This document shows positions 1,667 through 64,000 of a DNA stretch of 64,000 nt, piece by piece. The translations under genes were made by a program, and so were the position numbers. The DNA is from Amoebophrya sp. A120 (taxonomy: Eukaryota > Protista > Dinoflagellata), in assembly GCA_905178155.1 (NCBI GenBank), contig CAJINV010000005.1:5154667-5218666 (forward strand). The letters run 5' to 3'. Positions within the stretch are counted from its first letter, which is position 1. Every line of letters begins with the position of its first letter. The notes below the pieces were generated by a model. It was not told the DNA's origin. It did not search any database and was given only the letters and a program-made list of their open reading frames with translations.

Positions 1667-4600
1667 ATGAAACTCGCCAACAAGAATATGAAAGCTACCT
1701 TCTTCCTCGCCGTGGCTCCGTTTGGCGAGAAGTCGGGGACGAAGATGATGATGCAGATCGTTTCCGCCGTGGAGCAGGGTAAGAAGAAGAACACTAATGG
1801 TCCGGGTCGTGCTGGTAAAAAAGCTGCTGTGCCGGTCGTCGCGCCCGGAGGAGCTTCTGGCGGCCGTGGCGCGACCACGACTATGGCGTTCTCACCTGTT
1901 ACATTCTCAACTGTTACATGGGTTTATGATGCAAGAATGGCAAAAGTCAAAGCAGGGAGGTTGCAGCTGTAGCATTACAAATTCCGCACAGATTTAGGCG
2001 CTGTTTAGCCTTTCCAAAATTTGTCATGCGAAGACGCTTCACCTTGTGAGTGTTGATGTTCGTTTTGCATTGCAAATCATGTAACAGTTGAGAATGTAAC
2101 AGTTGAGAACGCCATAACGACGCACCTGTGGGTCGGGAGCGAGTTGGCCGGGACTGCCCAGTACGAGAGTTGGAAAAGCATCGGTGACTAGTAGAAATTT
2201 TTGCATTTATAAAAAATAGTACAACAAAAATCAAATATGCTTGTTGCTCACCAGCAAAAAAAATTTCTACGTAAGATTCGTTATGCGGATCTGACCTGGA
2301 GGAAAGAGGAAGATTTCGATTTGTCATGCATAAATAGCAGTACGAATACGACTACGAGTGTGCGATACTTTTTCACAGGATACAAAGGGATTCCTGCAGG
2401 TCGACCGTGCGACTGCGGCGGAGATGAAGCGGGTTGGCGATGACGACGACGACGACAACCCGACGGAGAAGGTAGCACCTAATTCATTCCCAACCTAGCC
2501 ATCGCATTTTTCGAGACACCAAATTGAAATTCTAAGCATCACAAATAGGACTAGGTCGCGCAGACCAGCGCGAACAGCGTGAGGGCCGGAATGGGTCAAC
2601 CACCTCTGTGGCCTCATTTTTGTTCTCCCATGGCCAGCGGCCCCTGCCTACAAAAATGGTCTACGCCGTGGGATTGCAGGAACGAGGCATGCAGGCTACA
2701 CAACCTGGTAAAGAAGTCGAAGATGGCGCGCGCGCATGCTAGAGAAGCATGCGCGGCTTACTGCTCACCTCTTTTTTATGTTCACACACTACAAAGGCAC
2801 ATCCTGACGTCTATGACGCGAATATGTAGAATCTAGCGGGCTCGCAGCCCCTCTCTCCGGCGACGTGGTGGCCGAGCAAGCTATGTGAGGGCACACGCCT
2901 CCCGTAGCGAGCCGTTACGCTAGCGACCTCTGCTGGGGAGGGTCCGGGGGGATTTGTTGCAGCCTGTGTTGCGTCCGGCGCTGTTACCTCTCGGCGCAGT
3001 GCTGGAGCACGGTTCGACCCACGTCTGTGGGCGCAGAGTGCGACGTCCCGCAGCCACCTCTGTGGCGCGGGCGTTGCGGTGCGGTCCCTGTTGCGCGCCC
3101 CGCGACTGTATGTAGCTGTACATAGGACGCTGCGACGAAGCAGCGCGGGTACACTTTTATACAGAAGCCTTGTCCGCCACTGAGAAGGGTGCGGCCCTTT
3201 GTTGTTGAGAACATAGATACGGACTAGAGCTACGACCCCATGCGCCCGCAGAGCTGCGGGGATTTGGGAAGGAGTTTGCGTTCGCCTCAGTATGATAACC
3301 AAAATGCTACCCAAATCACATCAACATGAATCAGGTACCAACAGGGCGGAAGCGGGTTGGCGATGACGACGACGACGACAACCCGACGGAGACGAGGGGA
3401 GCCGTTGCATATGAAATATCAAATGGAAATATGTCTTGGTCTGGAAGGTCGCAACTTGTCATGCTGTTTTTGGATTCTAAAAAAATTAGTATTGCATGAC
3501 CAGCAAGAAAGGTCCAGTTTGTGCTACGCGGAGAGGGCATTTCTCATGCGGAAAGCGCATCAGGAAGCCCTCTAAAAGTCTGTGGTGCTAGGTCATGCAT
3601 TACAGGCATCAGGGGTCATGAGAAATATGCGTGACAAGTCTTGCATTGTTCCAGACCCAGACATATTTGCATTTGATATGAACCCAAAGCCGTGACGGAC
3701 TGGGCGCAGGAGTGTGAGGAATTGAATGCGGAGTGGAAAGAACAAGCGGGACAATGTCCTCCTGATACCGCGTCAAAAGTAGTACTCGCACACATGATCG
3801 AGAAGGACTGTCCTCATGTGAGTCCCGACGTCAACAAGTGGCCGAAAATGCTTGGCCTCGAAAAAACCGACGCGACCGAAAAATGTTACCGCCTTCTCGA
3901 AGGTTACTCTCAGTTCTCGACTCTCATCCGCGGCGTCTTCAATATGGGACTCTCAAACGTTACACTCTCAAGTGTTTGATACATGACTTGTCATGCAAAG
4001 TTAGATGTGCCATAGATAATGATAACCCTAACCCTAAGCCGCCAGACGATCTTCAAGCTGCTTCGCATGACAAATTCTCGAAGGGCTAAACAGCGTCTAA
4101 ATCTGTGTCAAATGATGTGCGTCGCGAGAGCTGCAAGCATGTCCCTTAATATCTCACTGGTGCCTGCACCTGCTGTTGTTGCGTGACGAAAACAAATGGA
4201 TCGAACAGTTGGGACTGTAACGTTTGAGAGCTCTTGTCCCATACTCTAAGGCGGCATGTTGTTGAGCGCAGATACTTATGCATTGCAAAAGTATCGCACT
4301 CGTATAAATGCATTACAAATTTCCTCAGCATGAGAATTTGCAATGCTGATTTACCTGAAGCTGAAGAAAAAGACTTGTAATGCATGATTGCAATACGAGC
4401 GCGATACTTTTGCACAGGATAATACCAAGCTCATCCGCAACGTGACCGGCGACTCCGCCCCTTCCCCGGATCTGAGCGCTTGGGACGCTATCGCGAAACA
4501 CAAATCGGTGATCGACATGATCGAGGCCAAGAAAGAAATGTACCAGCTGTACATCGACCACTGGAAATTATGCCGTGTAAAAACATTTAAGTTTAACATT

Positions 4601-5013
4601 GCCACCCCAGAGTTGTCATACACGTCTGCAAGCCTCAGAGTCAGACGTTTCTCATGCGCAACCCCATGAGGAGCACTCTGTAATGCTGTCTGGCAGTTTG
4701 TCATGCTAGAATCAGGATCATGCCGCTACAATTATGTTGGCTAAAAAACGCGAGTTGTACACTCTGAGCCCAAAATTGTCATGCGCGACAGCCAAAAGAT
4801 GCTAGTTTATGTAGTAAAGTCACCATGATCTTGAGGACTATGGGGTGGGGACGTTTTTGCTCAGGATAGAAATGCGCGGAGCTGGGAAACGGCTGGCCGA
4901 AGGCCGAGGACTTTGTGGAAGACATCAATTTTCCCAGCAGCGAAATCGGCCAGGCCTGGGAAAAATACGTTGCCGATGCCGTGGCGGGTCTCGACAATTA
5001 TTTTACCAACTAA
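1667..5013 (+). CDS. Hypothetical protein; multi-exon gene interrupted by 6 introners and an 879-bp direct-repeat-flanked insertion (possibly a pseudogene)
   Basis: Removing 1882-2116, 2162-2382, 3417-3678, 3943-4243, 4277-4421 and 4569-4868 (each plus one 5-bp TSD) and the 2470-3392 insert gives one frame: MKLANKNMKATFFLAVAP...THLWVGSELAG...VDRATAAEMKRVGDDDDDDNPTETRGAVAYE...AVTDWAQECEEL...YIDHWKCAELGNGWPKAEDF...LDNYFTN*. No recognised domain. Confidence 0.65.
1882..2116. mobile_element. Introner family F (type copy; ~235-300 bp; TIR TATGGCGTTCTCAMCTGTTACATTCTCAACTGTTACATG)
   Basis: TSD ACGAC. Other copies: 3943-4243, 32514-33516 (expanded by an insert), 62607-62852. Confidence 0.92.
2426..3392. 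mobile_element. 879-bp insertion flanked by a perfect 44-bp direct repeat
   Basis: GAAGCGGGTTGGCGATGACGACGACGACGACAACCCGACGGAGA at 2426-2469 and 3349-3392, inside a coding exon. Confidence 0.7.
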
Positions 5014-6289
5014 ACATGTTGTTGAACTTAAACTTATTTACTTTTTTCGCTTCAGAATCAATCTTTCTCGCGATCTATTCCACCTCCGGTTTCAAGAGTA
5101 CACTTTTTTTGTTTTTGTTTACAGCTGCACATGTTGTTTCAATTTAATATTTCATTTCATACATGTATGTCAATCACCAGTTGGGTATTACTCATTTATT
5201 CATTCACTCGTCCACATGACAGCGATGCCTTTTGGTATTTATTGGGAAAACGAAAAGAATCTTACTCATCCACCATAATCCGCAAGATAGAAGCACAAGA
5301 ACCTGACAACTCCAAAAATGTAAATGTTAGTGCCTGTAGCTGTGCCGACGTACTTTCTTGCGACGGAGAGGGAGAGCTAGTACTTAGCAGTGTAAGAACT
5401 GCAACTGCCGTCAGCTTTCTCTCTCCTGTCGCAGCAGATTAAAGTGCTGTCCAGCCGTTGTACTAACAGAGTCGCGTATGTTGATACTGCAGTGGTTCTT
5501 TTTACAATTCACAGATCAAAGCTGCGTCTTCCCGCTCCAGCAGGAGAACAACAATAACGGCACACCAGTTACAAGAAGTTATTCGAACTTTTATCGCATA
5601 TAATTGCCGCTTGAGGATCGTCTTGTTTCAGGCAGGAATCTTGTCCCGCGGAGCTGTGGTGGTTCACGCGTACATTCTTTCCACACGAAAAATTGTTCCA
5701 CATTCATCTTTCCACATCTTGGTTCGATGGCGCTTTCCGCCTTTCAATCACTGTGCTGTAGATCATTATGTTGCTCCTGTCACGGAGGCGGAATAGCAAG
5801 AAGTCCTCGGGATCTTCTATGAAAAAAACGAAAAGTTTTCACCTCCCGTCGCTCTTGCTGCTGGATCTTCCCTGCGATAGTACTGATCGAAGCATATTAG
5901 AGTTCTTGTTGAAATGAATTCTTTGGTTAGAAATACCGCTTGATGCTGTTGTGCTTTTCGTTTCTGATTGGATTTTTTGGATCATACACTAATAGCGTTT
6001 ACTGATAGGTTACCTGTTTTCTGTAGTCGAAGAAAGAACTTGATAAGGGCAGTTCCTTCTCCTGCGGGCGCCGGTTTTGCGTAGCCTTCGTTTCGAGGTG
6101 GATTGCGCAAGAAGTGCTGGAAGCATTCACCCTCGTCATATGTTTTCCATGATGGCAGTTCGTGGTTAGTATGAAAATGTGTACAACGGTCATGAGCCAT
6201 AGATAATAAATAGCATCGATCGTGGTCCAGCATGAGCAATTAGAAGTGCGTTGAGTATACAAATTACCTTCGGCAAGTAGATGTAAAAG

Positions 6290-6852
6290 ATGAAGACCAT
6301 GGATTTCGAGTCGCGGCGGCGCGCGTTCAAGCAGACGCAGGATTTGAACGACGTGCGACGAAAGCGTGAAGACGAGGAAGTGCAGCTGCGGAAAACGGAA
6401 AAGGAGGTCCTGCTGCAGAAAAAGCGCCGGGATTGCCGCAGCGATGGTTGTAGTACTGCACCAGCAGCTCCGGCGTCCACCTCGACTTCCGCTGCAGCAT
6501 CCGCTTCCTCTTCCACCACGGAAAGCATGGGTAGTACTTCTACCCACGGTAATTATAACAGCGCGGCAAGTAGGACAACCTCTAACAACAGTTGTGCCAG
6601 TGCTACCAACTACACGGCTCAGAAGATTTTAGGGCAGAGGAACACGCTGCTTTCGACAACCGACGAAGAGCATAGCTCGGGAGCGATGAATTCAAAAATG
6701 AGTCTGAATCTGAATGCAAGTGCAAGTACGCATCTTCAACTGCAGTCGACAGATCAACATGGTGCAGCTGTTGGCAATAATATTAACTCGCCTTGTGTGT
6801 TCCGTGACCATCATGATCATGGCCCGCCAGAAGACTGCTCCCCATTACTGCA
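6290..6852 (+). pseudogene. Importin-alpha-like 5' fragment (IBB domain plus S/T-rich linker), cut off by the tandem array
   Basis: MDFESRRRAFKQTQDLNDVRRKREDEEVQLRKTEKEVLLQKKRR matches the importin-beta-binding motif (RRRR-E...LRK...L.KRR). The following introner (from 6853) loses its right end at 7080, and no ARM-repeat exons are seen downstream. Confidence 0.65.
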
Positions 6853-7080
6853 TATACACTGCAAGAGATATAATGTCTGGATTTGGAAGGTTGCAACTTG
6901 TCATGCTAAATCTGGATCGTGCCAAAAATATGTGTTGCATGATTACCAAAAGATGTCCACTTTCGGACAAGTTCAGAGGCAGTTTGTCATGCAGGATAAG
7001 TAGGGATGATAGCGGTTTCACAGAATCTGCCATGCTAGGTCCTACATGCCAGACCTCATGGGTCATGGAAAATCTGCATG

Positions 7081-20520: not shown

Positions 20521-20953
20521 GTGTAGCTAAATCTATGTTCACTTTTTTGTTTTTCTACTCCGGCGGCAGGAGAGCTGAGCAGTCGCTAGTAAGTAGCTCT
20601 TTCGCAGCATGGTCGTGCGAAATTTATTAAATTTCTGGCATTTCCTCGGTCATGGTCTGTCTCTTTCATCTGCGTCCCCTCCTCGTCGTATAAATTTGTG
20701 GTAGAGCTTGCCACTGGCACACTAGATCATTTTTGCTTGTCAGGGCTTCATCAATCTGCCTTCATTCCTCCCAAGATTCGGCTTTCGTCTTGTTTCCACC
20801 GCGTTCACGAGATTTTTTATCTTCGGCTAACTAAAAAGAAGAACTGCTTGCTTTGTATAATTCAAGAGTAGAGCAACGCGTTCTGGAGCGTACCATATAT
20901 ACTTAAACTACTTTCTCTAACTATTTTCTCTTTTTGGGAAAGTAAGAAGCAAG

Positions 20954-23900: not shown

Positions 23901-26331
23901 TATGTTGTGGTCGTGTTTTTCGCTGGAACAACGTCGAGTGCCCTGGCGTCTGGCGAGCACTATTCGGGAACCTCCGCCGCAGCTTCATCTTCTAGCCGCA
24001 GTGCCGATCATACCAGAGGTGATACATCAACCGGGGAGTACTATGGCGCGGGTGGCGCACATGGCGCGAGTGCGGATAGCACATCATTGCACGGAATCGC
24101 AACGACCGTGGATAGCAGTGCAGGAGGTACAGGGGAGAAAGGGATGCAGGTACACAACAAGAAGGATCTCGCTTGTGTCTCTGCGCACCGAACAGTTGAA
24201 AATCATGCGGATCTTACATAATTTCCCGCCCATGTTCTTCTACAGAACAGCATTAGCCGATGCTGTGGAACCAAAATCAAGAAAAAAAATATCAACAGGC
24301 CATCTGCTGCGACCTGCGGCAGCTGATTTTCCTCGGTTTCCTGTTAGCGCACCTTGCGTCCCTGCAGGACAAAGTGCGTTTTTATCCCAATGCAAAAACG
24401 TCCCCACGACCCCAGATCCAAGACAAGGATTCCGCTTCACAGAACCAGCATCTTTTGGCTGTCGCGCATGACAAGTTTGGGCTCGCCGTTTCATCGCGTT
24501 TACGTTTAACTATTGTACTAGCTGCATCACAAATCGATCCCCTTATGCTGCTTCTAGCATGACAAAGTGCCAGACAGCATTACAGGATAGTACTCATGGG
24601 GCTCTGCATGACAAACATTTGAGGCTTGCGGATTTGCACGACAGCTCTGGGGAGGCCGCGGGGACGTTTTTGCTCTGGATAGCTTCGAGTACTTGTTCAA
24701 GTTTTCCGAGAAAAAGCCGCGGGGCTACATTTTCGTGTGCATCTTTTATGAACTGCAAAAGTATCTGATACTCGTACTGCAATCATGCATTACAAATCTT
24801 TTTCTTGAGGTAAATCCGGATTACAAATTTTATTTCTCATGCTGTAATTTGTAATGCATTTATACGAGTACTACGAGGATACTCTTGCAGTTCATATCTT
24901 TTTTCTCACGGCAACTGACTTTTTCACCAAGATGTACGACAAGCTCTTCAGTGGTATCAAATGCGAAAATGTCTGGGCCTGGAAGAATGCATGTTTGTCA
25001 TGCTTGTATGGCATGACTCTTAAATCTGTCATGCGCCTTACCTAATAGCCCCATTCTTCTGTCATGCAGAAACGCAGTTTGTCATGCAGAATAGGCAACA
25101 CCTAGGTAGAAGCTCAAAAACTTGTCATGCTGAGCCAGCATTTGTGGCCTCCTCATGATACGCCACCCAGCGTCACAAGTTTCCAGACCCAGACATATTT
25201 GCAATGCATAAGTGGCGTCTTCGGACTAATTTTCTCGATACTCCACTCCGTCGCCCGGTTCTGCCTCCCCGGGTTTATCGTTCGAACTTTTTCATCTTCT
25301 TCTTCAAGCACCTCGGCTGAACAAGAAGCATCCTCGCACGCTGGTGTTTCAAAGTCAGAGCACCTCCGTGAAGATGGACAACAACCCACTTTACTGGTTT
25401 TACTCTGCGCCGCACCGTTGATCCTGTGGCACATCTACATTGCGCGGAAAGCAACGACGAAGACCGGATTTCTGTGCTATTTGATGTGGAAGTGCTTCTT
25501 CGTTCTGGTGATCGTGTTGCCAAAGACCATATGCATTGCAAATATGTCTGGGTCTGGAAGGTGGTAACTTGTCATGGTAAATCTGAAGCATGCAAAAGTC
25601 TGTGTTGCATGAGTGCTAAAAGCAGCTGTCCACTTTCGACCAAGTTGGGAGGGAGTTTCTCATGCAGGATAGGCATGGCGGAGACCTCGCAGAGTCTGTC
25701 ACGCTAAGTCCCGCATTCCAGACCTCATGGGTCATGGAAAATTTGCATGACAAGTTTACACTCTTCCAGACCCAGACATATTTGCAAGGCATAGACCAAT
25801 TTTCTGGAGTCGATCGGGTTTCTCCTGGCGCTCTTCGTATGCATTGCAAAAGTATCGTATTCGTATAATTGCATTACAAATTCTTTCAGCATGAGAAATA
25901 AAATTTGTAATGCGGATTTAGCTTGAGAACAAGATTTGTAATGCATGTTTGCAATTGCTACGAGCACGATACTTTTGCACAGGATACTTCGGCGAGTACA
26001 ACCATCCCTTGTCCGTAATCAGTCTGGCGTTTGGCTGCGGGTTGTGGGTTATCAAATGCAAATAGGTCTGGGTCTGGAAGGATGCAAGATAGATTCCTAA
26101 ATCTGTAATGCATGAGCAGGAAGGCAGCCTCGTACCTGTCATGCAAAAATGCAGTTTGTCATGCGGGAAGCGAAACATATAGGACCTCAGAAACTTGTCA
26201 TGTGTGGCTGCGTAACGCAGTGCACCCATCATTCACAAACTGGCATCACAAGTTTCCAGACCCAGACATATTTGCAGTCCATATGGGTCCGGGGCTTGGG
26301 CATTTACAGGACCGACCACTTACTGTATTGA
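20954..26331 (+). CDS. Hypothetical multi-pass membrane protein with long low-complexity N-terminus; about 13 introners
   Basis: Frame restored across introners: MFASSSNTLIMSSNSEDAGPLLGP...KRIALFLALLASGYVVVVFFAG...LIFLGFLLAHLASLQDKVRFEYLFKFSEKKPRGYIFVCIFFLTATDFF...CFFVLVIVLPKTNFLESIGFLLALFGEYNHPLSVISLAFGCGLWVRGLGIYRTDHLLY*. One probable GT-AG intron near 24150-24256; junctions at 22340-22900 are degenerate and uncertain. Confidence 0.75.
21052..21358. mobile_element. Introner family D (type copy; ~310 bp; TIR TATGGRRGTGTCAGRATCGAAATCG)
   Basis: TSD ACCAG. Other copies: 36755-37061, 40881-41190, 49031-49342. Confidence 0.92.
25530..25793. mobile_element. Introner family A (type copy; ~230-280 bp; TIR TATNNNNTGCAAATATGTCTGGGTCTGGAA)
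   Basis: TSD GACCA on both sides. Other copies: 3417-3678, 6853-7080 (truncated), 8100-8351 (+3 array copies), 24955-25210, 26050-26283, 27615-27866, 28523-28772, 33603-33855, 37150-37405, 37916-38177, 38930-39198, 40130-40395, 41238-41482, 42127-42381, 42708-42969, 44918-45154, 47159-47409, 48179-48435, 48741-48999, 54100-54359, 54503-54761, 55069-55334, 55407-55658, 56219-56501, 60463-60727, 60790-61053, 61557-62459. Confidence 0.95.
25838..25986. mobile_element. Introner family B (type copy; mostly ~140-170 bp; TIR TATNNNNTGCAAAAGTATCGTACTCGTA)
   Basis: TSD CTTCG. Other copies: 2162-2382 (degenerate), 4277-4421, 22996-23151, 24747-24896, 36542-36690, 39505-39668, 41528-41665, 41952-42103, 43050-43202, 44595-44744, 47712-47856, 49915-50082, 53892-54041, 61135-61284, 61340-61498, 63349-~63480 (interrupted). 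Confidence 0.95.
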
Positions 26332-27242: not shown

Positions 27243-30200
27243 ATGGGCGAGCGGCAGCAGCGGATCCGGGATCCGCGGTCGGTGCCGCTCACAGGGGTGG
27301 TTGTTCCAAGCGGGGAAGGAAATCAGCAGGACTCTGTGGCGGCGAGGACATCCGGTGAAAGTAAACTAGCAAACGTCGACGATTCCTTGCCGCCGAAGAG
27401 AAAAGTATATCTCGTTTTATTTAAGTGTTGTGCAGGTACTATGTGAATGTGCATGAGCATGTGGCAGAAAAAAGAGATGAAAAGAAATGTTGATGCAATA
27501 AATGCGTTCACATCTTCCACACCCAGTTGCCACATTTGTACTAAACGCAGAAACATTTATTTCGCCACAGGTGATTTTGATCACTCTCGCCATGTTCTCT
27601 GGGTACGCTGCGACTATGCATTGCAAATATGTCTGGGTCTGGAAGGATGCAAGGTTTGTCATGCTTTTCTGGCATGACTGAAGAGTTTGTGATGTGTGTC
27701 CAAGAAGACACACTTTCGTTTGTTATGCAAAACGCAGCTTGGCATGCGGAAAGCGCAACACTAAGCAGCGCAAATATTTGTCATGCTTGGCTGTGCATTA
27801 CAGAGAGTTCACTACTCGCAACTCAGCATTACAAGTTTCCAGACCCAGACATATTTGCAATCCATAGCGACCGTGACGATGCAACACGAGCTGCAACTGC
27901 ACTTGAAAATTCCCAACGACCCAAATTCACCCGAGAAAAAAGCCTTCACGATCGCCGTTACCTGCCAATACCTGGGCAACCTGATTTTCCGGCTGGGGCA
28001 CAACGTCTTCTACTGTTTGTCCGCCAGTCAGCGGGTGTCGCTCTCCCAACTGGCTATGATGGTGGCCATGTCCTTGATTCTCCTCCTCTTCTACTATCCG
28101 ATCAGTAGCTTCGTGCTGCTCTCGCCCCTGTATCATGAGTAAAAACGGCCCCACCCCATAGTCAAGATGGGAAATTTGCTACAGAAATTGCTAAGCTTTG
28201 ACTGGCGCGCATGACAAATTTTTGGGGCTCGCAATTTATAGTCGTTTTGAGCTAGTGCAGCAGCGTTACAGATCCACCTTGTGATGCTGAGTCGAGCATG
28301 ACAAACACAAATCTTAAATCACCACTAGAAAACGCCTCTCATGTTGGGTCTCCGCATAAGAAACATTTTAAAAAGCATGCGGATTTGCATTACAACTTTG
28401 CGGTGGGGACGTTTTTGTACAGGATACCCTGTCCATCGTGATTATCGCGTACTTGCTCTCCGGTTTGGCCATCGGGACGTTTGAATCCAACTGCATGGCG
28501 AGTCTGGCGATTCTAGGACCGATATCACCTGCAACTATGTTTGGGTCTGGAAGAAAGCGGACACTTTTCATGCATATTTTGCATCCGCAGGAGGGTCTAT
28601 CATGCGTGCAGAGCAGGTGCATGACAAATGGCACTTCTACTCTGCATGAGAAGTGCTCTCTCCTGGACGCAAAACCACACATGACTCACTGACTATGCAA
28701 GTCAGAGTTCCTTTTTTTTCTTTCAAAATGAGCATGACATCCTCCCAGACCCAGACATGTTTGCAATGCATAACCGAACACGAAGCTGTGGGCGGTGATT
28801 GGCTTGCCGTTGGGCTTCAACATTATCTCCGTCGGGGGAATGGCGCTGCTGTCTTTCGGCATGCCGCGGTACGGCGTGTATCTGTTTGTTCTGGTGATGA
28901 ACTTCTTCGGTTTCTTACTGTACAAGTGCGGACTGCCGAAGGGGGTGCACATCGACAGAAGTGTAGTTCTTGTTCCCAATACGATTACGAGCAGCACTGG
29001 AGATCATGACCATGCCACCAATTTCGTCGAGAGCGCAGTACCAACATCTTCGTATGCGGTAAGAACTACTGGTGCACGTGAAGACCAGTCAGCAATGGGA
29101 AACCGGCAACAGGATCATGGTGCTCATATCACGACCGAAGTTGCAGCGGCCAGGACCACTACTTCTTCCCCTGTGGATTTGGAAGCCGTGCCAGGTGCTG
29201 GGGTGGTATTACAATGAAAAATGCCACCACCCCAACATATTCAAAAGACAATTTGTGTTGCTGGATTTGTGTACACAAATGATCTTTGTATTGCAGCAAG
29301 AACTTCTTGTCAACCTATTCTAAGCCCATTTGGGTACGCATCCGGCTAGCAGCTCCTGAGCATGAGAAACAGGTCTGACGTAGGCGAAAACGCATGACAG
29401 ACTCGCTGCACAGTGCGCCACATGGGTGCCGGTTGCCTTGTGCGCAAGGCAAAGCTGATTTGTGTTCACAAATCAGCATCACAAATTCCTTTTCGATATG
29501 GGGAGTGGGGATTTTTCCTTACGATAGGCGGTCCGCTTTAACGACGCAGTGATAAGTCGGAGAAGTGGTGCTGGGTGTTGTGGCAAAGCAGTGCGGCAGG
29601 GGATAAGAAGTACTTACTTACTACTTTTTTCAGCATCTGTCGCAAATAAAGTTTCATTTTGTCACACGATATTATGGCCATTTTGTACTTCGCCACCTTC
29701 CGTCTGGCGATCAAACATTCTTGCAATTATTTGAAGACCACACAAAAACATCTCTCTCCACCGCAGGTCTGTGCAACTATCTCCCAAAAGTTCTCCCGCA
29801 CTCCCTCGCGCTTCTCGTGGCCATGTTTGGCGTATGACAGGGCACAACTCGTCCCCCTCGTTCTCATTTCTCATGCAAAATACCAACTCCACGCTTTATT
29901 CCCTCCTGTCACTATTATGCATGACAAGTTCAGGTAGCCTAAGAAAATAGCACTACACTCCAGTGCAAATTTGTCATGCAAGAAAACCGGCATGCTTGCT
30001 GATGTGTTTCTTGCCGTTCATGCTATACAAATGAGGGGCACGAGGGAAAGTTGTGCACTGTCATATGGCGTCGCTTCCTGCACTGGGATTACCACGAACA
30101 TTTTTAGCGGAAAGAAGGTCCCTAGGCAAGAAAAAAACTGTGTAAGTGTAAGTCTGTGATGCAAAGGTATGTAACACAATTATCACTTGTCATGCTACCA

Positions 30201-31514
30201 ACCATGAAGTCCTATTTCATTTGTTTTTTCACTTACTAGCTGCGCATGACAGGTCTTGTCATGCAGAACAGATTTGTCGTGCCGTCACCTCAAGACACCT
30301 ACACTAACACAGCTTTTTTTTTTTGGATAGTCCCGCTGTTCGCCGACACTCCCGACTCCGCTTTTCTCATCGACCAGCACTTATTTTTGTCCATCCTGAA
30401 CGCGTTTGTGTTCCTGGGCGACAGTATTGCAATGAAAAATGTCCGCCCCACGACCCGAGTAGAACTTGGCAGCATTTGTATTGCAAACCTCTCCCGTGGA
30501 AATAGTTGCCATCTTGCATGTATCAGCATCATAAATTTTATTCAATGCTGAACAGCTGAAATTTCAATTTGCGTTGCAAAGGAACGCAGCAAGAACTCGC
30601 CGGCCCTGTGATGCAAAACATGCCTAGCGCAGTCTAAGTTCTGCTGCACCAGAAAGACTCTTAGTCCTTTCATGCATAGATAAAAAGTTTTTCACTTGAA
30701 AACCTTATATGCATCAGAAAATTTTTTTGCTGCAACTATGAGGGTCCTCGTGCGGGCGCTTTCCATTGTGACAGAGAGCGTAAGCAGAAAGATCGCCTAC
30801 TTGATCCCCGCGTTTCCGAAAACAACGAGTGCGGAAGTAGAAACTGGCGCAGAAGAAAATCCTGTGGCATCGATGTCAACATCAAGACGGATAAATCGGA
30901 AGATTTTTCTGCGGCAAATCATCCTCCTGCTTTTCTTCAACGTGTTCTGCACTCTCTCCGGGCTGTATTTTCTCTCCCTGAAAATGGGCTTCTTCGCGAT
31001 TATCGGAGCTTTCCTGATTTTCTACGGTAACGTATCCTGAGAGACAACGTCCCCACCTCATAGTCAAGAAATGGGAAGTTTGCAGCTACACAAACCAACA
31101 GCGTTTGGCTGTTGCGCGTGTCAAATTCGTGCTCGCAGCGTGAGATTACGTAGCTATTGAAGCTGCATCACAATTTGATCCTTTCTATTCTGATAATTTT
31201 AATTGTAGTATGACAAACTGCCAGACAGCACGAAGAAATGCTTATCATGAGAAGCATTTGAGGCTTGCAGATTTCTTTGCATGGCAAGAATTCTGGGGCA
31301 GGGGCGCCTTTACATCGGATACAACGGCTCAGTCTACGCGACGACCACCCGGTTTGTCGACAAGCAACTCGCTATGGAGTTTCACGTTCGGGCACTGTCC
31401 GTCTGGCTTTTCGTCGGCGATTTGGGGAGCGTTTCCGGGAGTAGTTTGACGGATGTGTTTCATCGGCACTTGTGCGGCTGCGGGAGTGTGAAGCACTACT
31501 GGATTTGCAAGTGA
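27243..31514 (+). CDS. CLN3/battenin-like (MFS-type) membrane protein; 8 introners plus a few conventional introns
   Basis: Reconstructed segments VILITLAMFSGYA, YLGNLIFRLGHNVF, AYLLSGLAIGTFESN...LGPNTKLWAVIGLPLGFN, FLGDSVSRKIAY, FYGNGSVYATTTRFVDKQ...ALSVWLFVGDLGSVSGS; many hydrophobic helices; recalled resemblance to protist CLN3-like proteins. Start codon uncertain; GT-AG intron 27436-27570. Confidence 0.65.
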
Positions 31515-33448: not shown

Positions 33449-33572
33449 CTCCGCCCCGGCGGCTATCATGACAAATCCATGTAACAGTTGAGAATGTAAC
33501 AGTTGAGAGCGCCATAATTTTCGTTTGCCTTTGACCAGACTCGCCTTTGACGAGTTGTTCTCCACCTGCAAA

Positions 33573-35470: not shown

Positions 35471-38400
35471 ATGATGTCGCGCTTCTCGCCCGCAGGCACA
35501 GTCTACCTTATGTCGGGTCGACTCCCGTCCGGTCGTCCCAGGCGTCAGCACACAGCGTTCTCGCACTACATCCGGGCCGCGGTCGCTGTGCTTTCCCTGT
35601 TAATCTTCGAGCCCCACAACACCTACAACGCTAGCGCGAAGCTCTGGATGGCACGGAATTTACACCAGTATCGTACGTAAAAAGTGTTTCACTGTAAGGA
35701 TTTTGCAAGTTTTGCATCACAAGTTTGCTTTACATGACAACGGAAATTTGCCATGCGAGGTTTCCTAAGAGAAAAAGGCTAGACATCCATTATCTTGCAC
35801 GTGCAGCATTGCATACACTTCTGCGATCCATTTTCTGCATCACAAGTTTACAGTGAAGCAGTTTTTTCTTGCGATGGCCAGCCCTTGTCCTGCACAAGAC
35901 GGACGAACGTGGACACCGCGTTGAAATGGATCGAGTCTCGCGACGTGCTCATATCGTGAGAAAAAGATGTAGTTACAGCTTACACACTCTGACGCAAGAC
36001 CAGCAAGACAGACATTTTTTGTCATGTGGGCAATGCTTTCCAGTCTCACTTCCTGCGTGTTTACTTCCCTAATTGATCATGTCTGCGCATTACAAGTTTT
36101 CGTTGCCATGCAGAGCAACTTTGTTATGCTGAAAGTGCAGCAAGTGTGTAGTAATTGTAACACTTTTATTTTCCTGCGATAGCTCGACACGTTCCTCCAC
36201 TATCCGCTAACCGAGGAACTGGTAAATAACTACCTGAAGCCCCGGCAGTGGACGCTGTCCAACTGCGATTGCAGTTGTGGCAACTGCCACCAGGACCTGC
36301 TCGAGTGCCCTATTGGGCATTTTGTTAACGTGCTTTACTTGGCGATCTTGTGCACGACGGACATCGCCCGCGAATCGTTGATTCTGTCCATTCCCCCCCA
36401 CGGCGATATGGGCCGGACGTTTCTCCGGCTGGTGCGGGCCTTGGGCGGGCTCAATTCGGTCATGTACTCGGGCTGGCCGATTTTCGAAATTTGGTTTTCC
36501 ATCAGCGTCATGACGGAGAAGATTCGGGAGAGACGCACGTGTATCCTGTGCAAAAGTATCGTACTCGTACTAATCGCAGTCATGCAAGACAAATTTCTTT
36601 TTCAAGCTAAATCAGCATGAGAAATTTCATTTGTCATGCTGAGCTAATTTGTATTGCAACACTAGAAGTACGATACTTTTGCAGTTCATAACGTGGCAGG
36701 TCCGAATGGACTGGCTGCACCGGGAGGTGGACCCTTTATTGGAGGTACTGTCCATATGGAAGTGTCAGAATCGAAATTGACAAAGTCGAAAAATTTGTGA
36801 TGCATAAAATCGGCACCGGCTGGAGCCTCAGTTGGTAAGTGGCGCATGGCAAATTTCGGGAGCGCCCAAATCCGGTCTGTCATGCGGTTTGGGCAAAAAA
36901 GACTGCTCCTGTCGTGCTACTCTGGCAGCGCATTGCATACCCGTAAGCAGGCTTGCAATCGGTCTCATTTGCCTCCTCCCCAACACAGGCCAGGCGTGCC
37001 CTACATTTTATGCATTTACAAGTTTTTCGATTTTGTGGATTTCGATCCTGACACTCCCATACTTCAGTCCGAAATACGGGATTGAGCGGGACGCCTGGAA
37101 GGAAATCGAGGTGGACGTACCGGTGGTACTATTGGCGGCTGGGAATCATTATCAAATGTAGAAATGTCTGGGTCTGGAAGATTCCGGGATTTGTGATGCA
37201 TATTTTGTATGATCCATGATTCATGTAATGCATGATCTAGCATCACAGACTTTTAGAGGGCTTTCTGATGCCTATTCCGCATGAAAAATGCCGTCTCCGC
37301 GTAACACAAACTGGACCCCTGTTGCTGGTCACGCAATACAGATTTTTTTAGAGTCCAGAGTTAGCATCACAAGTTCCAAACTTCCAGACCCAGACATTTT
37401 TGATAATCATGACAGGGCAAGAACCTCCGCCGGTCCTCGTGCTGTACTTGATAAGGTTGACCAATTATTGAGAGGAAAAATCCCCCCTCCCCATATCGAA
37501 GCGGTATGCTTCCGAAAATTTGTCTTGCTGATTTGAGACCACAAATCACGTCTGTCTTGCCAGAAGACAACTCCACAGGCTCTGCCGCATTACCCAGGCG
37601 GTTTGTGATGCTGTTGGGCCTACAGCATAGACGTTTCCCATGCTAAGCACCTAGGCAAAAACCTCTCCGCTCAGGCTTGGCAGGAGCTTGCAGTCAGCCA
37701 CTGCAAGACAGATCTGATTTGTGTACGCAAATCCAGCATCAGAAACTTCCTTTTGATATGGGGAGGGGGGATCTTTCCTTTTGATACCAATATGTTGCTC
37801 ACGATCAAATTACAAACACCGCTGATACAACAACAACGGTCAGCACTGGGCTCTCCATTCCGGGCTTACCGGATGCGTTCGTTACTAGCGAGCGGACCTC
37901 TACCGAGGAAGTGCTTAAGCATTCGCAAATACCACTGGATGTCTGGAAGATTCAGATTGCAAGACTTGTCATGCAGGTTTGCCATGATCCACAGGACTTA
38001 GCATGACAGATTCCGGGAGATCTCTAGCATGCCTCTGTGCAAGATGAGGAACAGCCTCCAATAGACTTGGTCACAAGAAGTGGACACCTCTTTGTAAATA
38101 ATCATTCAACACAATTTTTTGCACGATCCAGACCTAGGATGACCTTCCAGACATCCAGGGATATTTGCGAATGCATAGTGCTGCGCGGGCTGGAAAAGGT
38201 GGCACTGATGGAGAAAGGTCAGGACGTTGATAGGTGGAAACAAGCCGCACTTGAAATTACCGACGTCGTCGGGTTCGCAATAACGGGCACCAGCAGCGCG
38301 ATGAAAATGCTGAATCACGATCCGACCGAGCTCCTCCATGCGTTGGAGAGGAAGTTTGGGTTGCAGTTGCAGTCGAAAATGGAAAATGAGAACGCAGCCG

Positions 38401-41400
38401 CTGACTTTGATAGTGAAGAACATGATGCTGGCAAAAAAATGGGCTCAGCAGTACAAGTGCCTGTCGTCACGACCAGCTTGGAGAAGACGAAAAAAGTGAA
38501 ATTCAAGTTCTTCTACACCTGGATCAGCGCAACGAATTCAGGTACGACCAGGGAAAAGTTCTGACCGTCCTGTAGCCGTCGGTCGTCAGCAGGAAAAATT
38601 TGTGTATGCATTCTTGCAATTGTTGAACAGAACACGAGACTAACCTATGGTAGAAGTTTCTATGGATAATGCAAGCTATCGTGCTGTTCCTTCTCCTGCT
38701 AGAATGCAGAAGCTTTACCTGGTCAATACCTCGCTTGACGGATAATTTCCACGAGATTCTTCACCCCGCAACCACGCCGGCGCATCTGTTCAAAGACCCG
38801 GACATTCTTTTCCAGGATTTCCAGGCCAAAAGAGAAGTGAAAATCTTCGTGTGCGCGCCGGTCGAGGACTTTGTCAACGAGGTGCTCTCGCTCTTGCGGA
38901 ACCGCTGGCTCTTGCAGGGGTTCATCGGCTATGCACTGCAAAAATGTCTGGGTCTGGAAGGATGGAACTTGTAATGCTAATTCTGGATCGTGCAAAAATC
39001 TGTGTTGCATGAATGCCAAATGTTCTCCACTTTTGACCAAGTTGAGAGGAAGTTTCTCGTGCATGATACATAGGCATGATAGGGATCTCGTCACAGAATC
39101 CGTCATGCTAGGTCCTGCATTCCAGACGATATAGCTCATGGAAAATCTGCATGACAAGTCTCACAATCTTCCAGACCCAGACATTTTTGCATTTGATATC
39201 GGCCTGATTTTCCACGACAACTTTGATGTTGACCACAGGAGGACTTCTAGTACAACAAGTAGTCGCGATCACGAAACCAATCCTAATGGTAATGATCCGG
39301 ATCCCGGCGATGGGGAAAACCAAAACCAAAACGACGGAAGCCACGGAGAAATCCCCACTGACAGAAATTTTTTCCTCCACACCCTGCACCGGTTCCAGCA
39401 AATGTCCCTGCCGTCGCAGTTTGCCATGCTGGTGCCCCGGTGGACAAGTTTTTTGGAACACCCGGTCGAGCAAAGCATCGAGGAGATCGCGAAGAAAAGG
39501 AAAGTATCCTGTGCAAAAGTATCGTACTCGTAGTAATTATCGCAATTATGCATTGCAAATCCTTTTCTTAAGGTAAAGCCGCATAACAAATTTTATTTTT
39601 CATGCTGAGGAAATTTGTATTTGTAATGCATTTATACTTCGAGTGCGATAGTACTTTTGCAATTCATAGAAGCTGTTTTACTCCAGTGTCATGCTGGATG
39701 ACAAAACCGATACTACAACTACTTCAGGGGGCAGCACAAGTACGAGAAACCACATCCGTATCCACAGGAAATTTCCCGTACACGACGTACAAATGCGGTT
39801 TCTGCATGACAAAACTTTCGTTCAATTCTTTCTTTCAGCATGACAAGTGGTATGCTGCAAGTTGATGAAATTTGTGATGCATTTTGTGCATGTACTTACA
39901 GGAAATTTGTATTGCATGATCCGGCGGCGCATTCGCGAAGCGAGTCTCGGGCTGGGGACGACCTGCTCGCTATTCCAAGCGGCAGCGATTGCGGAGGGGG
40001 TCGTCTCCGTCGGTCTAGGGATCGAGCCGGAGCTGGTGTATCAGGCGGAAAACATCGGCCGGGACCAGTGGGACGAATATGTGCCGACGCTGCGGTCGCG
40101 AGTGGAGGTGTTGGTCACAAAGTACGTGCTATGAAATGCAAATATGTCTGGGTCTGGAAGATAGCAAGATTTGTGATGCAGTTTATCCAAGCTCCACCAA
40201 GAAGTCTGCAATGCAGGGTCTAGCATCACGGGATCTGCAGCCCCTTGGTGATGCCTGTTCTGCATGACAAATGCCCTCTCAGCATGGCCAGAAGTGGGCA
40301 CCTTTTGCAAGTCACGCAACACAGATTTTTGTACGATTCGCAACATGCATCACAAGTTCGAATCCTTCCAGACCCAGACATATTTGCAATGCATACGTGC
40401 TGGAAGGGTACCAAACGCCAGCACCGGCGAAAGAACAGGAGGATGAAAATACTCAATCCACTTCAGAGCATATGCAAGAAAAAAACTGTGTAATTGTAAA
40501 TCTGTGATGCAGAAAATGCAAAACAGTTACACTTGTCATGCCAGACAGCCATGAAGTCCTCTTTTCATGTGTGTTTTCCCTTACAAGTCACGCATGACAG
40601 GTTTTCGCTGTCATGTAGAGCAAATTTGTGATGCTGTTAGCCAAAGAAAGTTACACTTATACAGTTTTTTTCCTGGATAGAGCAAGATCTTCACGACGGG
40701 GAGATTGATGAAGAAGCATCGTCCGGAGGAACGGAAACAACAACCTCCAGCGCGGCCAAATCGCTGCTGCAAAAAATTGACGGAAGCAAGAAGGAGCACA
40801 TGTTACGATACTTCTACAACCGCTTTCTCATCTGGATGGAGTCTTTCGTGGAGGAGATCTTCTATTTGATCCACTCCTGGTATGGAAGCGTCAGGATCGA
40901 AATCGTCAAAGGGGAAATACTAGTTTGTCATGCATAAAATAGATGCCAGTTGGAGCCCACTTTCCACGTTACGGATGACAAATTTTGGCGGTGCCTAAAT
41001 CCAGTTTGTAATGCTGTTTAGGCAAAGAGGAATGATTTTCTCATGCTACTTTAGCAACTCGAGCGGTAACCACAAACACGCTTACAATCGGCCTCACTTA
41101 CCTGCTCTGCAACACACGCACCTCGCGTCATGCATTTTATGCATTACAAATTATCTCAACTTTGACGATTTCGATCCTGACACACCCACTCCTGGTCGTC
41201 GATCTACGGCAAGGCAAACTGGTTCTCGGGCTTGATTTATCAAATGTAAAAATGTCTGGGTCTGGAAGATTCTGCGACTTGTCATGCATGTCTGACGTGA
41301 CTCGAGAATCTGTAAGGCGTGGGAGCGAACCGGCTGTCCTATCTGTCATGCAAAAACGCAGTTTCTGATGCGGAATACGCAACACGTAGCCGCTCAAAAA

Positions 41401-58199: not shown

Positions 58200-59202
58200 G
58201 ATATTGCAATGATTTGTAAAAGCTATCGGTCCGCATCTTCGCTCGGTCCATCTCTGATTGGCGCCCGGGAGGGCTTTTCGGCCCACCTGCTGTGGCTATC
58301 CCGCATGCTATGGTGGGTCGGAAGGTGCCAGAAGGTGGGGCCCAAAATGTGGCCTGGGGCGGCTTTTTGGGCACCAGCTGGAGGCTTACCCGCCCGCTAT
58401 GGTGGGCTGGAGGCCTCCCAAAACGGGTCCGGGGTGCAGATAGGGGGGGTCCAGCGGGACTTTGGCGGGACTTGGATGGCCGACCGTTTTTCTGGTCGGA
58501 AAATCGGCCATTTTAGCTCGAGCGAGCCGCTTCAGAAACCAAGTCCCGCTGAAGTCCCGCTGAAGTCCCGCTGGACCCCCCCTATCTGCACCCCGGCCCC
58601 GTTTTTGGGAGGCCTCCGGCCCACCATGGCGGGCGGGTAAACCTCCAATTGGTGCCCAAAAAGCTGTCCGCGGCAACATCTGCGGACGCGGGCCATACCA
58701 TGCGCCCTCGCGCCAGCACCGGGCGGATTCCGGCTCCTCCGGGAGACAAATTGGGGGGCCTCCACGCCCTCGGAAAAAAGTGCGCGGACTCCCGGGGGAG
58801 ATAGGCGAGGCAGAGGGCCCGTTCCGCTGTACCGAAAAGGCCGGCCCCCGGGCCACCCTTCCGGGCCGCCGCCCCCTTCCCGGCCCCCCCTATAGGCCCT
58901 CCGCCTTCCCGCCAGCTTCCCACCCCCTCTCTCTTCCTTTCCGGCCCCCATCCCGGTCCGGAATGGTCCTCCGGCGGGCCGCACGCAGTCGCTGCGCATC
59001 TGGTCTGATTTCTTCCATCTTGCTTTGGCAGATGGAGAACCAACGCAATTTGCTGCCAATTGACGCACCTACTTTCCGCATACTTTGCAAGTACCGCACG
59101 AGACCCGGAAGGCTTCACATTAACGACCCTTCCAGCTCTAAGATATTGCAATGATTTGTAAAAGCTATCGGTCGGCATCTTCGCTCGGTCCATCTCTGAT
59201 TG
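58200..59202. mobile_element. 881-bp GC-rich insertion flanked by a 61-bp direct repeat
   Basis: GATATTGCAATGATTTGTAAAAGCTATCGGTC(C/G)GCATCTTCGCTCGGTCCATCTCTGATTG at 58200-58260 and 59142-59202; internal ~100-bp inverted repeat (~58360-58470 versus ~58550-58665). Confidence 0.7.
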
Positions 59203-60004: not shown

Positions 60005-63000
60005 ATGTTTTCGCAAGTGAAGAAAACCTCGGGCCTTTTGGCCACTGTTCTGACCGCGGGGGAGCTTCCTCACCCGGGTGCGGGACTTCTTGTACTAGAG
60101 CAGGAACAGCAGGCATCCCACGAAAAAACTGTTTCACTGTGGTGATTTTTGACGATCTGCATCACAAGTTTGTTACACATGACACAGAAAACCTGCCATG
60201 CGCACTTCCCCAGGGAAAACACGCTTAAAAATCCAATGTCTTGCAGGTGTAACAAGATAAATAGTTCTGTGTTCCATTCTATGCATCACAAGTTCACAGT
60301 GAAACAGTTTTTTCTTGCGATAGCAGGAGATGGAAAACACCAAGGCCCCTCAACCGCCGCCGGGGATCATGCGTGTACTCGGCAAATTTGGTCCTTGGGC
60401 GATGAAAAACATTGCTGACATGAAGGCGGCGATCGTGGAGCGGCAAGTGGTGGAGAAAATCATATCAAATGCAAAAATTTCTGGGTCTGGGAGATTGCGA
60501 GATTTGTCATGCTAGTCTGGCATGCGCATGGCTCTCAAGTCTGTCATGCGCGCCACCCAAAAGCCACATTTCTATGTCATGCAGAAACGCAGTTTGTCAT
60601 GCAGATAGACAAGACTATAGCTTAGCAACCCCAAAACTTGTCATGCTTGGCTGTCAATGAAGGCGTCCACATGATTCTCCAAACAGCATCACAAGTTTCC
60701 CAGACCCAGACATATTTGCATTGGATAAATCAAGGACAAGTACCAGACATTTCACGAAGACAACATGGAGTTCATTTCTAGCGGGCTCCTATGGATTGCA
60801 AAAATGTCTGGGTCTGGAAGAATGCAGGAGTTTGTCATGCAGATTTTGCATGACCCATGAGGTCTGTGATGCATGCCCTAGCATCAGAGATTTTGCGAGG
60901 GCTTTCTGATGCTCATACCGCATGAGAAATGCCCTCTCCGCGTAGCACAAAATACACCTCTTTTGCTGTTCATGCAATACAGATTTGACGTAGAGTCCAG
61001 AGGTAGCATCACAAGTTGCATCCTTCCAGACCCAGACATTTTTGCATTTGATAGCTCCTGGGAAACGAGAATTGGACGGGGCTACAGCCGGGCACGATTG
61101 TTCTGGGGAAAACTACCCTCGCCGGCGCGGCCCATATGCATTGCAAAAGCATCGTACTAGTAGAAATCACATTACAAATTCGGCCAGCATGACAAATGGA
61201 ATTTGTCATGCTGTTTTGCCTTGAAAAAGAGATTTGCAATGCATAAATGCAATTACTACGAGTACGATACTTTTGCAATGCATAGCCCAGGGGCCGGTGC
61301 AAGATGCATTCCCGAATTACGACGTCTACAAGGTGGTGGTATCCTGTGCAAAAGTTGTATCGTACTCGTACTACTTGCAATCTTGCATGACAAACTTACC
61401 TTTTTAGCTGAATTAGCATTACAAATTCCATTTTTCTTTCTGATAAAATTTGTAATGCAATTTATACTACTAGTACGATATTACTTTTGCAATGCATAGG
61501 TGGAAAATAACGGCAACGTCGGTGACGCGGTCAAGTTCTTGCCCGTGTTCCGTCATTATCAAATGTAAAAATGTCTGGGTCTGGAAGAATGCAAGACTTG
61601 TGATGCAGGTTTTCCATGACCCATGAGGTCTGGAATGCGAGACCCAGCATGACAGATTTTTTGCGGTCTCTATCATGCCCTTCCTGCATGAGAAACTCCC
61701 TCTCAACTTGGTCAGAAGCGGACAGCTTTTGGTACTCACGCAACACAGATTTTTGCGTCATTCAGATTTAGCACGACAAGTTCCAACCTTCCGGACGTAG
61801 GCCGGATCATCCCCCTCAAGATAAGATCACCCCCCTCAAGTTTCCAAGATCACCCCCCTCAAGGGCATAGGGTTTAGGTTTTAGGGCTTAGGGGGTAGGG
61901 TTTCGGCGGTGTCGTCTGGGCCAGCCGTCGCGACGGCGCCGTCGCGACGGCTGGCCCAGACGATTCCCTCTTTCCTGTTCCGGGCCCGGGGCACGCACCG
62001 CCGTGCCGCCCTCGCCCCCCCCTTTGTTTGTTTCCCCTTCCCTTCCCCCTTCATTGGTTTGCCGTGACCCGGCTCGGGGGCGGGGACACGCTCACTGTGC
62101 CGCCTTTGTTGCCTCGGGGGGCGAGGCGCTAGGCGCTCCCGGGCTTCCTCGGGTGGCTGCCCGCCTGTGGCACATCTTGAGCCAGGAAACCTATTGGAAG
62201 GCCTTCCAGCAAATAGACACCAACGCCGCCCCGCCCTGCCCCCGGTCTGCCTGCCGCCGGCCCGCCTGCCCTTGTCCCCCCCCGTAGCCTGGCTGCCTGC
62301 CCCTGGCCTCGCTCGTGGCCCCCTTCCTACCTTCCTGCCCCTGGCCCACCCCCTGGCCCCCCTCAACCCCCCCCCCTGCATCTTGAGGGGGGTGATCCTT
62401 GGGGGGATGATCCTGCCTATGTCCCAACCTTCCAGACCCAGACATTTTTGCACTTGATAGTCATCCCAACCCGGACACCAACGGCGCGGCGCCACTTGTT
62501 CTCCCGACGGGGCCCCCGGTGGGTGAACAGTCGCCCGTTGGGGATGCGGCGACGCCGTTCGAGCTGCCGGATGACATGCAGCTGTTCGAAATGCCTCGCG
62601 CCACCTTATGGCGTTCTCAAACGTTACAGTCTCAGCTGTTACATGAATTTGTAATGCAAGAATGGCAAAAGCAAAAGGGGGAAGATAAAGATTGCAAAAA
62701 TTGCATGAGGACAAATCCCGCGCAGATCTAGGTGCTGTTTAGCCCTTCGCAAATTTGTTATGCGAAGCCGTTTGATCTTGTGGATGATGGTGGTAGTTCT
62801 GCATGACAAATGCATGTAACAGCTAAGAGTGTAAACGTTTGAGAACTCCATACACCTCCAAGTTCCGGGCCATGGTGCGAGCGAAGGACGAGAAAAAATC
62901 CGGGCTTTACTGGGTTACCGTGCCCGGTGACGCGGGTTATTCTGAGTAAAAACGCCCCCACCCCAGAGTTGTCCCAAAGTTCGAAACTTCTCTGTGCTTT

Positions 63001-63348: not shown

Positions 63349-63479
63349 TATGAATTGCAAAAGTATATAATCTTGCTAGTAGAAAAAATCGCATGACAAA
63401 TTTTCTCAGCATGAGAACTGGAATTTGTAGTGCGGGTTTACCCAAAGAAAAAGATTTGTAATGCATGACTGTAATAATT

Positions 63480-64000
63480 AGAGAAAGTGACGCTGTGAGA
63501 CCCAGAAATCAATGGACTCCGCCCGTGCGGACTCGTTTCAGGTTTCCCGGGAAACCTTCGGCTTAGCTCGTGCTAAAGTGTGTTGCAACGCAACTTAAAA
63601 CGCGGCGCGCGCATGGACTCCGCTGCTGTTTGTGGGCACAACCGCGCCGCGTCTGTGTTGCAGTCTCTTGTGCCCAAAGCGCCGCAGTCGGCTGCGGATT
63701 GCGAGCAACCTGGCGGCCCCGGCAAACCGGCGCACATTTTCGCCTGGCCTAACTTGGGCCGCTTCAGACGATCTTCCGCCGGTGGCACGGCCTCGCTTTG
63801 CCGTTTTCGGAAGAGGATTCCTCAGAGGATTCCAAAATCCTCTCAGGAATCCTCTGGCCCAATTTGGGCCGTCTTCCGCGCCCTTCCCCCGATGGCACTG
63901 CCCCGATTTCGGGAGAGGTTTCCACAGAGGATTCCTCAGAGGATTCCTCAGAGGATTCCAAAATCCTCTCAGGAATCCTCTGGCCCAATTTGGGCCGTCT
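63480..64000. repeat. GC-rich repetitive insert interrupting a B-family introner; runs off the window
   Basis: The B element starting at 63349 lacks its right TIR. Tandem GAGGATTCCTCA units and a duplicated ~50-bp block occur at ~63822-63872 and ~63950-64000. Confidence 0.55.

Follow-up and report, generated by a model that had tools for sequence, protein, structure and literature searches.

A ten-base motif, TYTGTVWTGC, is arrayed with fixed spacing rules inside the introners (TAT...ATA elements with a 5-bp target-site duplication, TSD) of a 64,000-nucleotide stretch of DNA from the algal parasite Amoebophrya sp. A120 (contig CAJINV010000005.1, positions 5,154,667 to 5,218,666, forward strand; hereafter, the window). 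On balance, the motif probably serves one sequence-specific protein as a binding site; this protein would coat the element as double-stranded DNA on a 16-bp lattice and would most plausibly be the putative mobilising enzyme, shared by all families, or its DNA-binding partner. The elements belong to a known class, the A120-type introners (Farhat 2021), within which the internal motif grammar is real and apparently undescribed. In the available text of PMC7789003, the mobility of some 30,000 A120 introners without a known transposase, and their excision without GT-AG borders or detectable U1 small nuclear RNA (snRNA), have been open questions since 2021.

A motif-blind collection, which looked for TAT...ATA ends bearing a 5-bp duplication, gave 90 candidates, one of them (53309) dropped as false; 14 more, bounded by terminal inverted repeats (TIRs) and TSDs, were sought around leftover motif matches, to give the total listed below. 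Fifteen elements in three extra identical tandem copies were excluded from all statistics. A pattern scan with the TIR of family F0 returned at least 133 stretches, with 129 loci among the matches listed, all from the public assembly JACKZZ01, a sample in which F0 is oversampled. These outside loci hold at least 510 elements in 664 kb, against 0 false elements in 203 kb of shuffled sequence. Together with the 86 window elements below 450 bp they form the statistics set of 595 elements, which clusters into 13 multi-copy families and 22 singletons. The introner span and two of its elements are given here (introners are listed without strand).

1882..63480, introner span, 103 complete and 3 partial TAT...ATA elements with a 5-bp TSD
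25838..25986, F1 introner of ~150 bp; sites at 25871 (-), 25889 (-), 25905 (+) and 25936 (+), centre spacings 18, 16 and 31
1882..2116, F7 introner with a different TIR type; sites at 1928 (+), 1976 (-), 2025 (+) and 2071 (-), in steps of ~48 bp

Exact matches to TTGTNATGC number 210 in the window (99 on the forward and 111 on the reverse strand), compared with a chance expectation of 3.46 +/- 2.08 and a maximum of 10 in 100 dinucleotide shuffles. Within 89 elements of the motif-blind search lie 179 of them, and 209 fall in the 27.5 kb occupied by the 103 complete and 3 partial elements, leaving a single match in the other 36.5 kb. Scored with a position weight matrix (PWM), sites reach a density of 18.1/kb within elements and 0.45/kb elsewhere in the window. 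This bears out the statement of the first-pass annotation, made from the letters alone, that one 9-mer is arrayed inside every family and rare elsewhere; its example at 25838-25986, four sites arranged as two pointing each way, was exact. The base that it had left free is here corrected to A, C or G, with T at only 1%, and the family-weighted motif over the 595 elements is the fuller TYTGTVWTGC with A-rich flanks. A site at PWM>=7 is present in 595 of 595 elements, with about 4.9 in each and a background of 0.78 per kb outside elements; window introners carry ~3-8 such degenerate sites, whereas exact 9-mers average ~2 per element and are missing from 5 of 86. The recurrence every ~15-50 bp that had been claimed holds for 77% of 323 adjacent-site gaps (median 33 bp, degenerate sites counted), but 19% exceed 50 bp.

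The motif also persists where the surrounding sequence diverges, as had been proposed. When a consensus built from outside loci was scored on held-out window copies, 3298 of 3776 core positions matched (87%), against 5839 of 8523 spacer positions (69%) and 310 of 472 at the free base N (66%). Private substitutions on terminal branches affect 4.5% of core and 10.3% of spacer positions. The same annotation had named two outcomes that would undo its claim, a motif no better conserved than its spacers or equally frequent outside elements; neither was found, because both density and held-out conservation exceed background. Two GT-AG introns of the window, and four other repeat-like stretches in it, do not contain the motif.

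Resemblances elsewhere were set aside. Motif pairs in viral contigs (26 loci, 2-5 matches each) are attributed to chance, with nothing element-like in the stretch inspected; one of these loci, L131, looks phage-like. A possible likeness to two known motifs, the Oct-Sox composite site and the PUF element, was dropped because the free position avoids T and the conservation profile differs. No description of the motif was found in the literature on Amoebophrya, introners and subterminal motifs, where Figs S19 and S25 of PMC7789003, which are pictures, might show it, and its three 9-mer spellings were not found in the introner papers searched for them.

The spacing of the sites follows a narrow rule. 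Two sites of the same orientation stand 30-33 bp apart in 11 of 12 families, whereas 20,000 random placements gave a mean of 1.96 families and at most 8. Among 44 adjacent consensus gaps, 18 measure 30-34 bp, 13 measure 46-51 bp and three measure 16-18 bp, and within families the 30-34 gaps are kept to +/-1 in 89% of copies versus 75-76% for longer gaps. Inside the pair, the best reverse-strand match stands at +15 to +17 in 14 of 18 modules, compared with one of 18 for the forward control. Pair spacing and inverted-site position therefore define a unit of forward, weak inverted and forward sites in 16-bp steps, as in the following example.

40502..40541, forward strand, F2 three-site module: forward 40502-40510, degenerate inverted 40518-40526 (+16), forward 40533-40541 (+31)

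This spacing is preserved where spacer sequence diverges. The periodogram of adjacent gaps is significant but broad (14-19 bp) and fixes no period. B-DNA has 10.5 bp per turn, so that a spacing of 31-32 bp corresponds to three turns and fits protein binding to B-DNA. Phasing also extends to the element ends. Counted from the end, the first site pointing inward is reached after 35-36, 43-47 or 58 bp, a distance that shifts by 9-11 bp between subfamilies in F0 and F4, and the phasing (R=0.58 at a period of 10.5-11) resolves into clusters about one helical turn apart. In F0 and F1, the first 13 end bases (e.g., 25838-25850) resemble a degenerate motif copy, weak in other families, with ~3, 4 or 5 turns between it and the first internal site.

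The first-pass annotation had offered two interpretations, the binding site of one trans-acting protein serving all families or complementary blocks folding the RNA into nested helices for excision. The former is supported because the same sequence and spacing rules hold across 12 families; the latter fails as a general rule, as discussed below. The lattice, its end phasing, the asymmetry with respect to transcription and the published status of the element class were not part of that reading. The 5-bp stagger and TA termini point to an integrase-like enzyme. In the mechanism that we propose, protomers would bind cooperatively on the 16-bp alternating lattice phased to the TAT ends and help to pair both element ends, and one integrase-like DDE enzyme would cut and insert with a 5-bp stagger. 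A single shared enzyme would explain the common end signature and TSD length despite different TIR interiors.

Spaced internal transposase sites have precedents in the arrays of TnsB in Tn7 (PMC9308760) and in Lemi1/Emigrant (PMC1636448). As described in the available parts of PMC9308760, TnsB arrays and introners share several weakly conserved sites, starting near the terminus, whose spacing is important; however, TnsB sites, 22 bp in length, occur at the ends only and define a left/right asymmetry, whereas introner sites are ~10 bp, bidirectional and spread over the whole element. [quoted passage not shown] The earlier comparison with Tn7 and Mu thus holds as an analogy only. Tn7 and Mu make 5-bp TSDs. 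Introners share with them multiple spaced, end-phased sites; long 22-bp end-confined sites and TGT/TG termini are not found, the introner termini being TAT. Subterminal repeats are also a feature of hAT and CACTA elements.

Several observations weigh against a DNA-binding mobilisation protein. No binding protein was found and, over ~0.7 Mb of sequence, no transposase or integrase domain was found in the 108 of 299 long raw open reading frames (ORFs) scanned with Pfam, nor in 65 of 92 frames from nine long elements. A 415-aa ORF at locus L045 matched only itself and no relative. In the available text of Farhat et al. (PMC7789003), no transposase was found in A120 and general mobilisation by a transposase is argued against. 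A purely transpositional site should ignore host transcription, yet a clear sense-strand effect exists (see below). End phasing fits periods of 10.5 and 11 equally, and double-stranded RNA geometry is therefore compatible with it. Furthermore, 16-nt inverted pairs match at N in 303 of 912 cases versus 275 expected, and two module excesses point the same way (N in the first F0 module, 0.84 versus 0.61 expected; W in F2, 0.88 versus 0.46). Finally, the 12 families may share remote ancestry: their masked interiors barely cross-match, but the test is insensitive (F0 recovered 2 of 25 of its own members), and their independence is for this reason unproven.

In the search for an autonomous element, long TAT...ATA candidates proved to be nested insertions or chance pairings. 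At L045:476-2934, F0-type ends surround ~2.2 kb that include the 415-aa orphan ORF, without a Pfam match; this interior is probably a nested insertion. The available parts of PMC12130899 (Gozashti et al. 2025) describe A120 family 38, of ~810 bp, with a 5-bp TSD, TA termini and ORFs with Copia/Gypsy homology, filed as Ginger. This Ginger-like family shares the 5-bp TSD and TA termini with the present elements, but has ORFs (PMC12130899), whereas the long elements checked here lack such an ORF.

Removal of introners from transcripts was seen in contigs of four runs from one sample, whose RNA status is a guess. All eight introners tested between 26900 and 31900, from six families plus one singleton, are skipped precisely as the element plus five nucleotides (total in brackets); two motif-free introns of the same gene served as controls.

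27615..27866, F0 introner, skipped (257, element + 5) in contigs of the four runs
28131..28426, F3 introner, skipped (301)
28523..28772, singleton introner with F0-like TIR, skipped (255)
29207..29526, F4 introner, skipped (325); imperfect TSD, left copy kept through the third base
29833..30065, F5 introner, skipped (238)
30123..30329, F2 introner, skipped (212)
30425..30773, F9 introner, skipped (354); imperfect TSD, left copy kept through the third base
31033..31321, F3 introner, skipped (294) though three of three called sites are antisense-reading
27405..27570, forward strand, canonical GT-AG intron, motif-free control
29610..29766, forward strand, canonical GT-AG intron, motif-free control

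A contig of run X5 spanning 30137-32565 leaves in two introners that are skipped elsewhere, and raw RNA reads of run X9, of which 14 map, are uninformative. At the three imperfect TSDs (29202-29531, 30420-30778 and 31028-31326), it is the left (5´) copy whose mismatched base survives in the joined contig, which places the cuts near the element start and 3-5 nt beyond the final ATA. Removing the element with one TSD copy restores long frames, up to 2493 nt. A GT-AG placement is possible for only 13 of 408 elements, no base bias suggestive of spliceosomal signals was seen in TSDs or flanks, and U1 snRNA is reported as undetected in both A120 and A25 in the available text of PMC7789003.

The conservation of the motif depends on the direction of host transcription, which was assigned to 523 of the 595 elements from restored frames by locus majority. 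When each copy was compared with its five nearest relatives (491 elements), core substitutions numbered 371 of 9278 at sense-reading and 490 of 9790 at antisense-reading sites (ratio 0.80, permutation p=0.0008), with no strand asymmetry in spacers, N or TIR positions 4-15 and a non-significant trend at TIR 16-28. The asymmetry holds for directly called elements (0.75) and without F0 (0.78); it is non-significant in F0 alone (0.85, p=0.19) and on short branches (0.83, p=0.18). The two TG dinucleotides, a post hoc choice, carry it (0.56), and transitions and transversions at T/G positions fall alike (0.66 and 0.65). Among paralogues of the same insertion (three pairs only), changes number 0 of 40 in sense cores, 4 of 56 in antisense cores and 31 of 518 in spacers. 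Outright site loss is equal on both strands. A general mutation bias in TG contexts was rejected, being absent in non-core DNA (301/6088 versus 281/6034 and 229/6198 versus 252/6276). The effect shows a host-level, transcription-polarised constraint on the sites after insertion, on the simplest reading because they would help excision along; the asymmetry may alternatively come from biased repair where the sites are bound.

This asymmetry, confined to the cores and shared by both substitution classes, together with the undetected U1 snRNA, speaks for the motif being primarily a splicing signal. A host RNA-binding protein or guide RNA would read UG-N3-UG and recruit a U1-independent excision, both orientations being kept to serve either direction of insertion. 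We regard such a signal, on its own, as rather unlikely. The element at 31033-31321 is excised without a called sense site, and such a site is missing from 35 of 523 elements. None of the ten families tested prefers one insertion orientation, not even the strand-skewed F3 (35 versus 22, p=0.11). The rigid 31-33 spacing with its alternating inverted site would have little point on single-stranded RNA, sites that read antisense still show twice the conservation of spacers, and the asymmetry grows no stronger on short branches and is non-significant in F0 by itself.

A protein bound to double-stranded DNA accommodates the spacing, and the strand effect could be added to it: after insertion, the host would select the same sites strand-specifically, and the protein, or a second reader on nascent RNA, would probably assist excision without being strictly required. 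That one and the same protein reads the lattice twice, first in a DNA transposition complex that serves every introner family and then, passed on in the course of transcription, in marking the ends for precise, U1-independent excision together with one TSD copy, is a tentative proposal, possible but some way from probable. If it is true, this two-fold reading would be a transposon-derived splicing pathway with the motif as its bait. Strand-specific conservation is the first sequence-level hint found of a reading beyond the terminal hairpin and in step with transcription. The shared site geometry also offers a pull-down bait, a signature for the autonomous element and a variable for intron-retention regression.

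B-DNA-like spacing would suit any duplex-DNA binder, and a host chromatin protein (a DVNP, a histone-like protein or a silencing or modification enzyme) might be recruited so that elements with the array are tolerated, with the strand effect arising from mutation or repair bias. DVNPs are encoded by Amoebophrya (PMC7789003, available text). C>T (1.82x) and A>G (1.41x) are among the substitutions in excess on the sense strand. These are the usual direction of transcription-associated mutation. However, the motif is nearly absent outside elements (the one exact match in 36.5 kb), the fact that it is phased relative to the element ends suggests a reaction directed at those ends, C9 transversions are fewer on the sense strand (9 versus 25) and the central N is symmetric, all of which make this recruitment improbable.

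Folding of the intron RNA by complementary blocks into nested or local helices, which would join the ends for excision, is very unlikely. Elements do fold much more stably than their shuffles (family mean z -5 to -13; 137 sequences, six shuffles each), as expected for TIR elements. Of 632 sites, 41% are predicted to form an in-register pair with an opposite site, a share that reaches 0.62-0.72 in F7, F11 and F1, the inverted site at +16 would form a short hairpin, and the C>U and A>G excess resembles tolerance of G-U pairs. Nevertheless, the free base matches equally (0.384) in 48 opposite- and 46 same-orientation pairs, and symmetric pairs mismatch there (0.25 versus 0.43 expected in F0; 0.08 in F7). 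In-register pairing falls to 0.03 in F3 and 0.00 in F10, which are unable to pair motif with motif. Complementarity that looks real in excess is confined to one F0 and two F2 modules; beyond these few, no compensatory covariation between partner blocks was detected, and Rfam gave no match in the window. Sense and antisense strands fold equally (p=0.52). That G-U wobble alone produces the asymmetry was rejected because transversions drop as transitions do, which wobble does not predict, and pairing alone would not keep one sequence across families. Nested helices are thus unsupported as a general rule, since complementarity at N is absent and F3 and F10 cannot form them; local hairpins may nevertheless form. 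That the motif has no function and is simply left over from one ancestral element, an idea that the TAT signature common to the families and the similarly C-rich TIRs of F3, F4, F5 and F9 might suggest, is hardly credible, being already contradicted by the conservation tests: on terminal branches the rate of change in cores is below half that of spacers, held-out copies also show conserved cores, and spacing is kept while spacer sequence is not.

The assignment to A120-type introners is based on the agreement of A25 homology, the A120 end signature, frame restoration and contig skipping. The exon at 36189-36539 matches an Amoebophrya sp. A25 protein at 70% identity, one of two hits in all, and this protein also aligns across two introners of the host gene after these are taken out.

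35669..38177, forward strand, host gene with seven introners; the A25 homologue aligns across 35952-36181 and 36542-36690 after their removal

All features of the class are present: an Amoebophrya host, a TAT-N7-AAA inverted repeat (IR), a direct repeat (DR), non-canonical removal and repetition in families. The available text of PMC7789003 gives A120 introners the IR TAT-N7-AAA, direct repeats of 3-5 nt and non-canonical junctions, and the published lengths of 149-160, 208-227, 252-261, 273-279 and 305-349 bp match the present families (PMC7789003, PMC12130899). The 5-bp TSD is exact in 408 of 522 stranded elements. The first-pass annotation had called the TIRs unrelated, which is overstated: all ends read TAT[C/G], most with G9 and an A-run at 11-15, as published (PMC7789003). 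In the end logo of the 595 elements, where the search itself had required TAT and F0 is over-represented, A occupies positions 11-13 in 84-92%; the run is missing in F6, F7 and F8.

In their available parts, the accounts of A120 introners describe only terminal IR and DR motifs and the hairpin, with no internal motif, lattice or strand-specific conservation (PMC7789003, PMC12130899). Similarly, the nonconventional introns of euglenids and non-canonical introns of Fritillaria are TIR/TSD-bounded, MITE-like and non-GT-AG, as here, but their signals are described as terminal, with no mention of an internal phased array in the portion available of PMC11282704. Fixed geometry, lack of complementarity at N and strand-specific conservation were none of them found reported in the literature searched.

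Other observations concern the elements and their surroundings. Stretches between introners are shorter than 30 nt in 15 of 374 cases, with a peak at 40-60 nt, pointing to a minimum exon size or insertion exclusion. Indels between nearest copies favour multiples of three (3 nt, 223; 1 nt, 182; 2 nt, 53; 6 nt, 50); only 31 of the 223 3-nt indels are tandem duplications, and the element + 5 length modulo three is near uniform (126/129/153). One possible source is a mutational process with a bearing on how fast proteins evolve in this genus.

The ranges ~7080-19690 and 20500-23900 hold a 3147-bp gene unit in four near-identical tandem copies, each of which has five introners, together with a diverged paralogue that carries extra introners. 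This apparent array, which may be real or an assembly artefact, breaks an importin-alpha-like gene (IBB domain, 6287-6850) inside an F0 element. Finally, motif-free, GC-rich repeat-like insertions lie at 32745-33460, 61787-62424, 58190-59200, 52140-53050 and 63481-64000; two are nested in introners, one has its own inverted repeats and one is flanked by direct repeats, and the sequence at 32741-33466 recurs at 91% in the outside locus L071.

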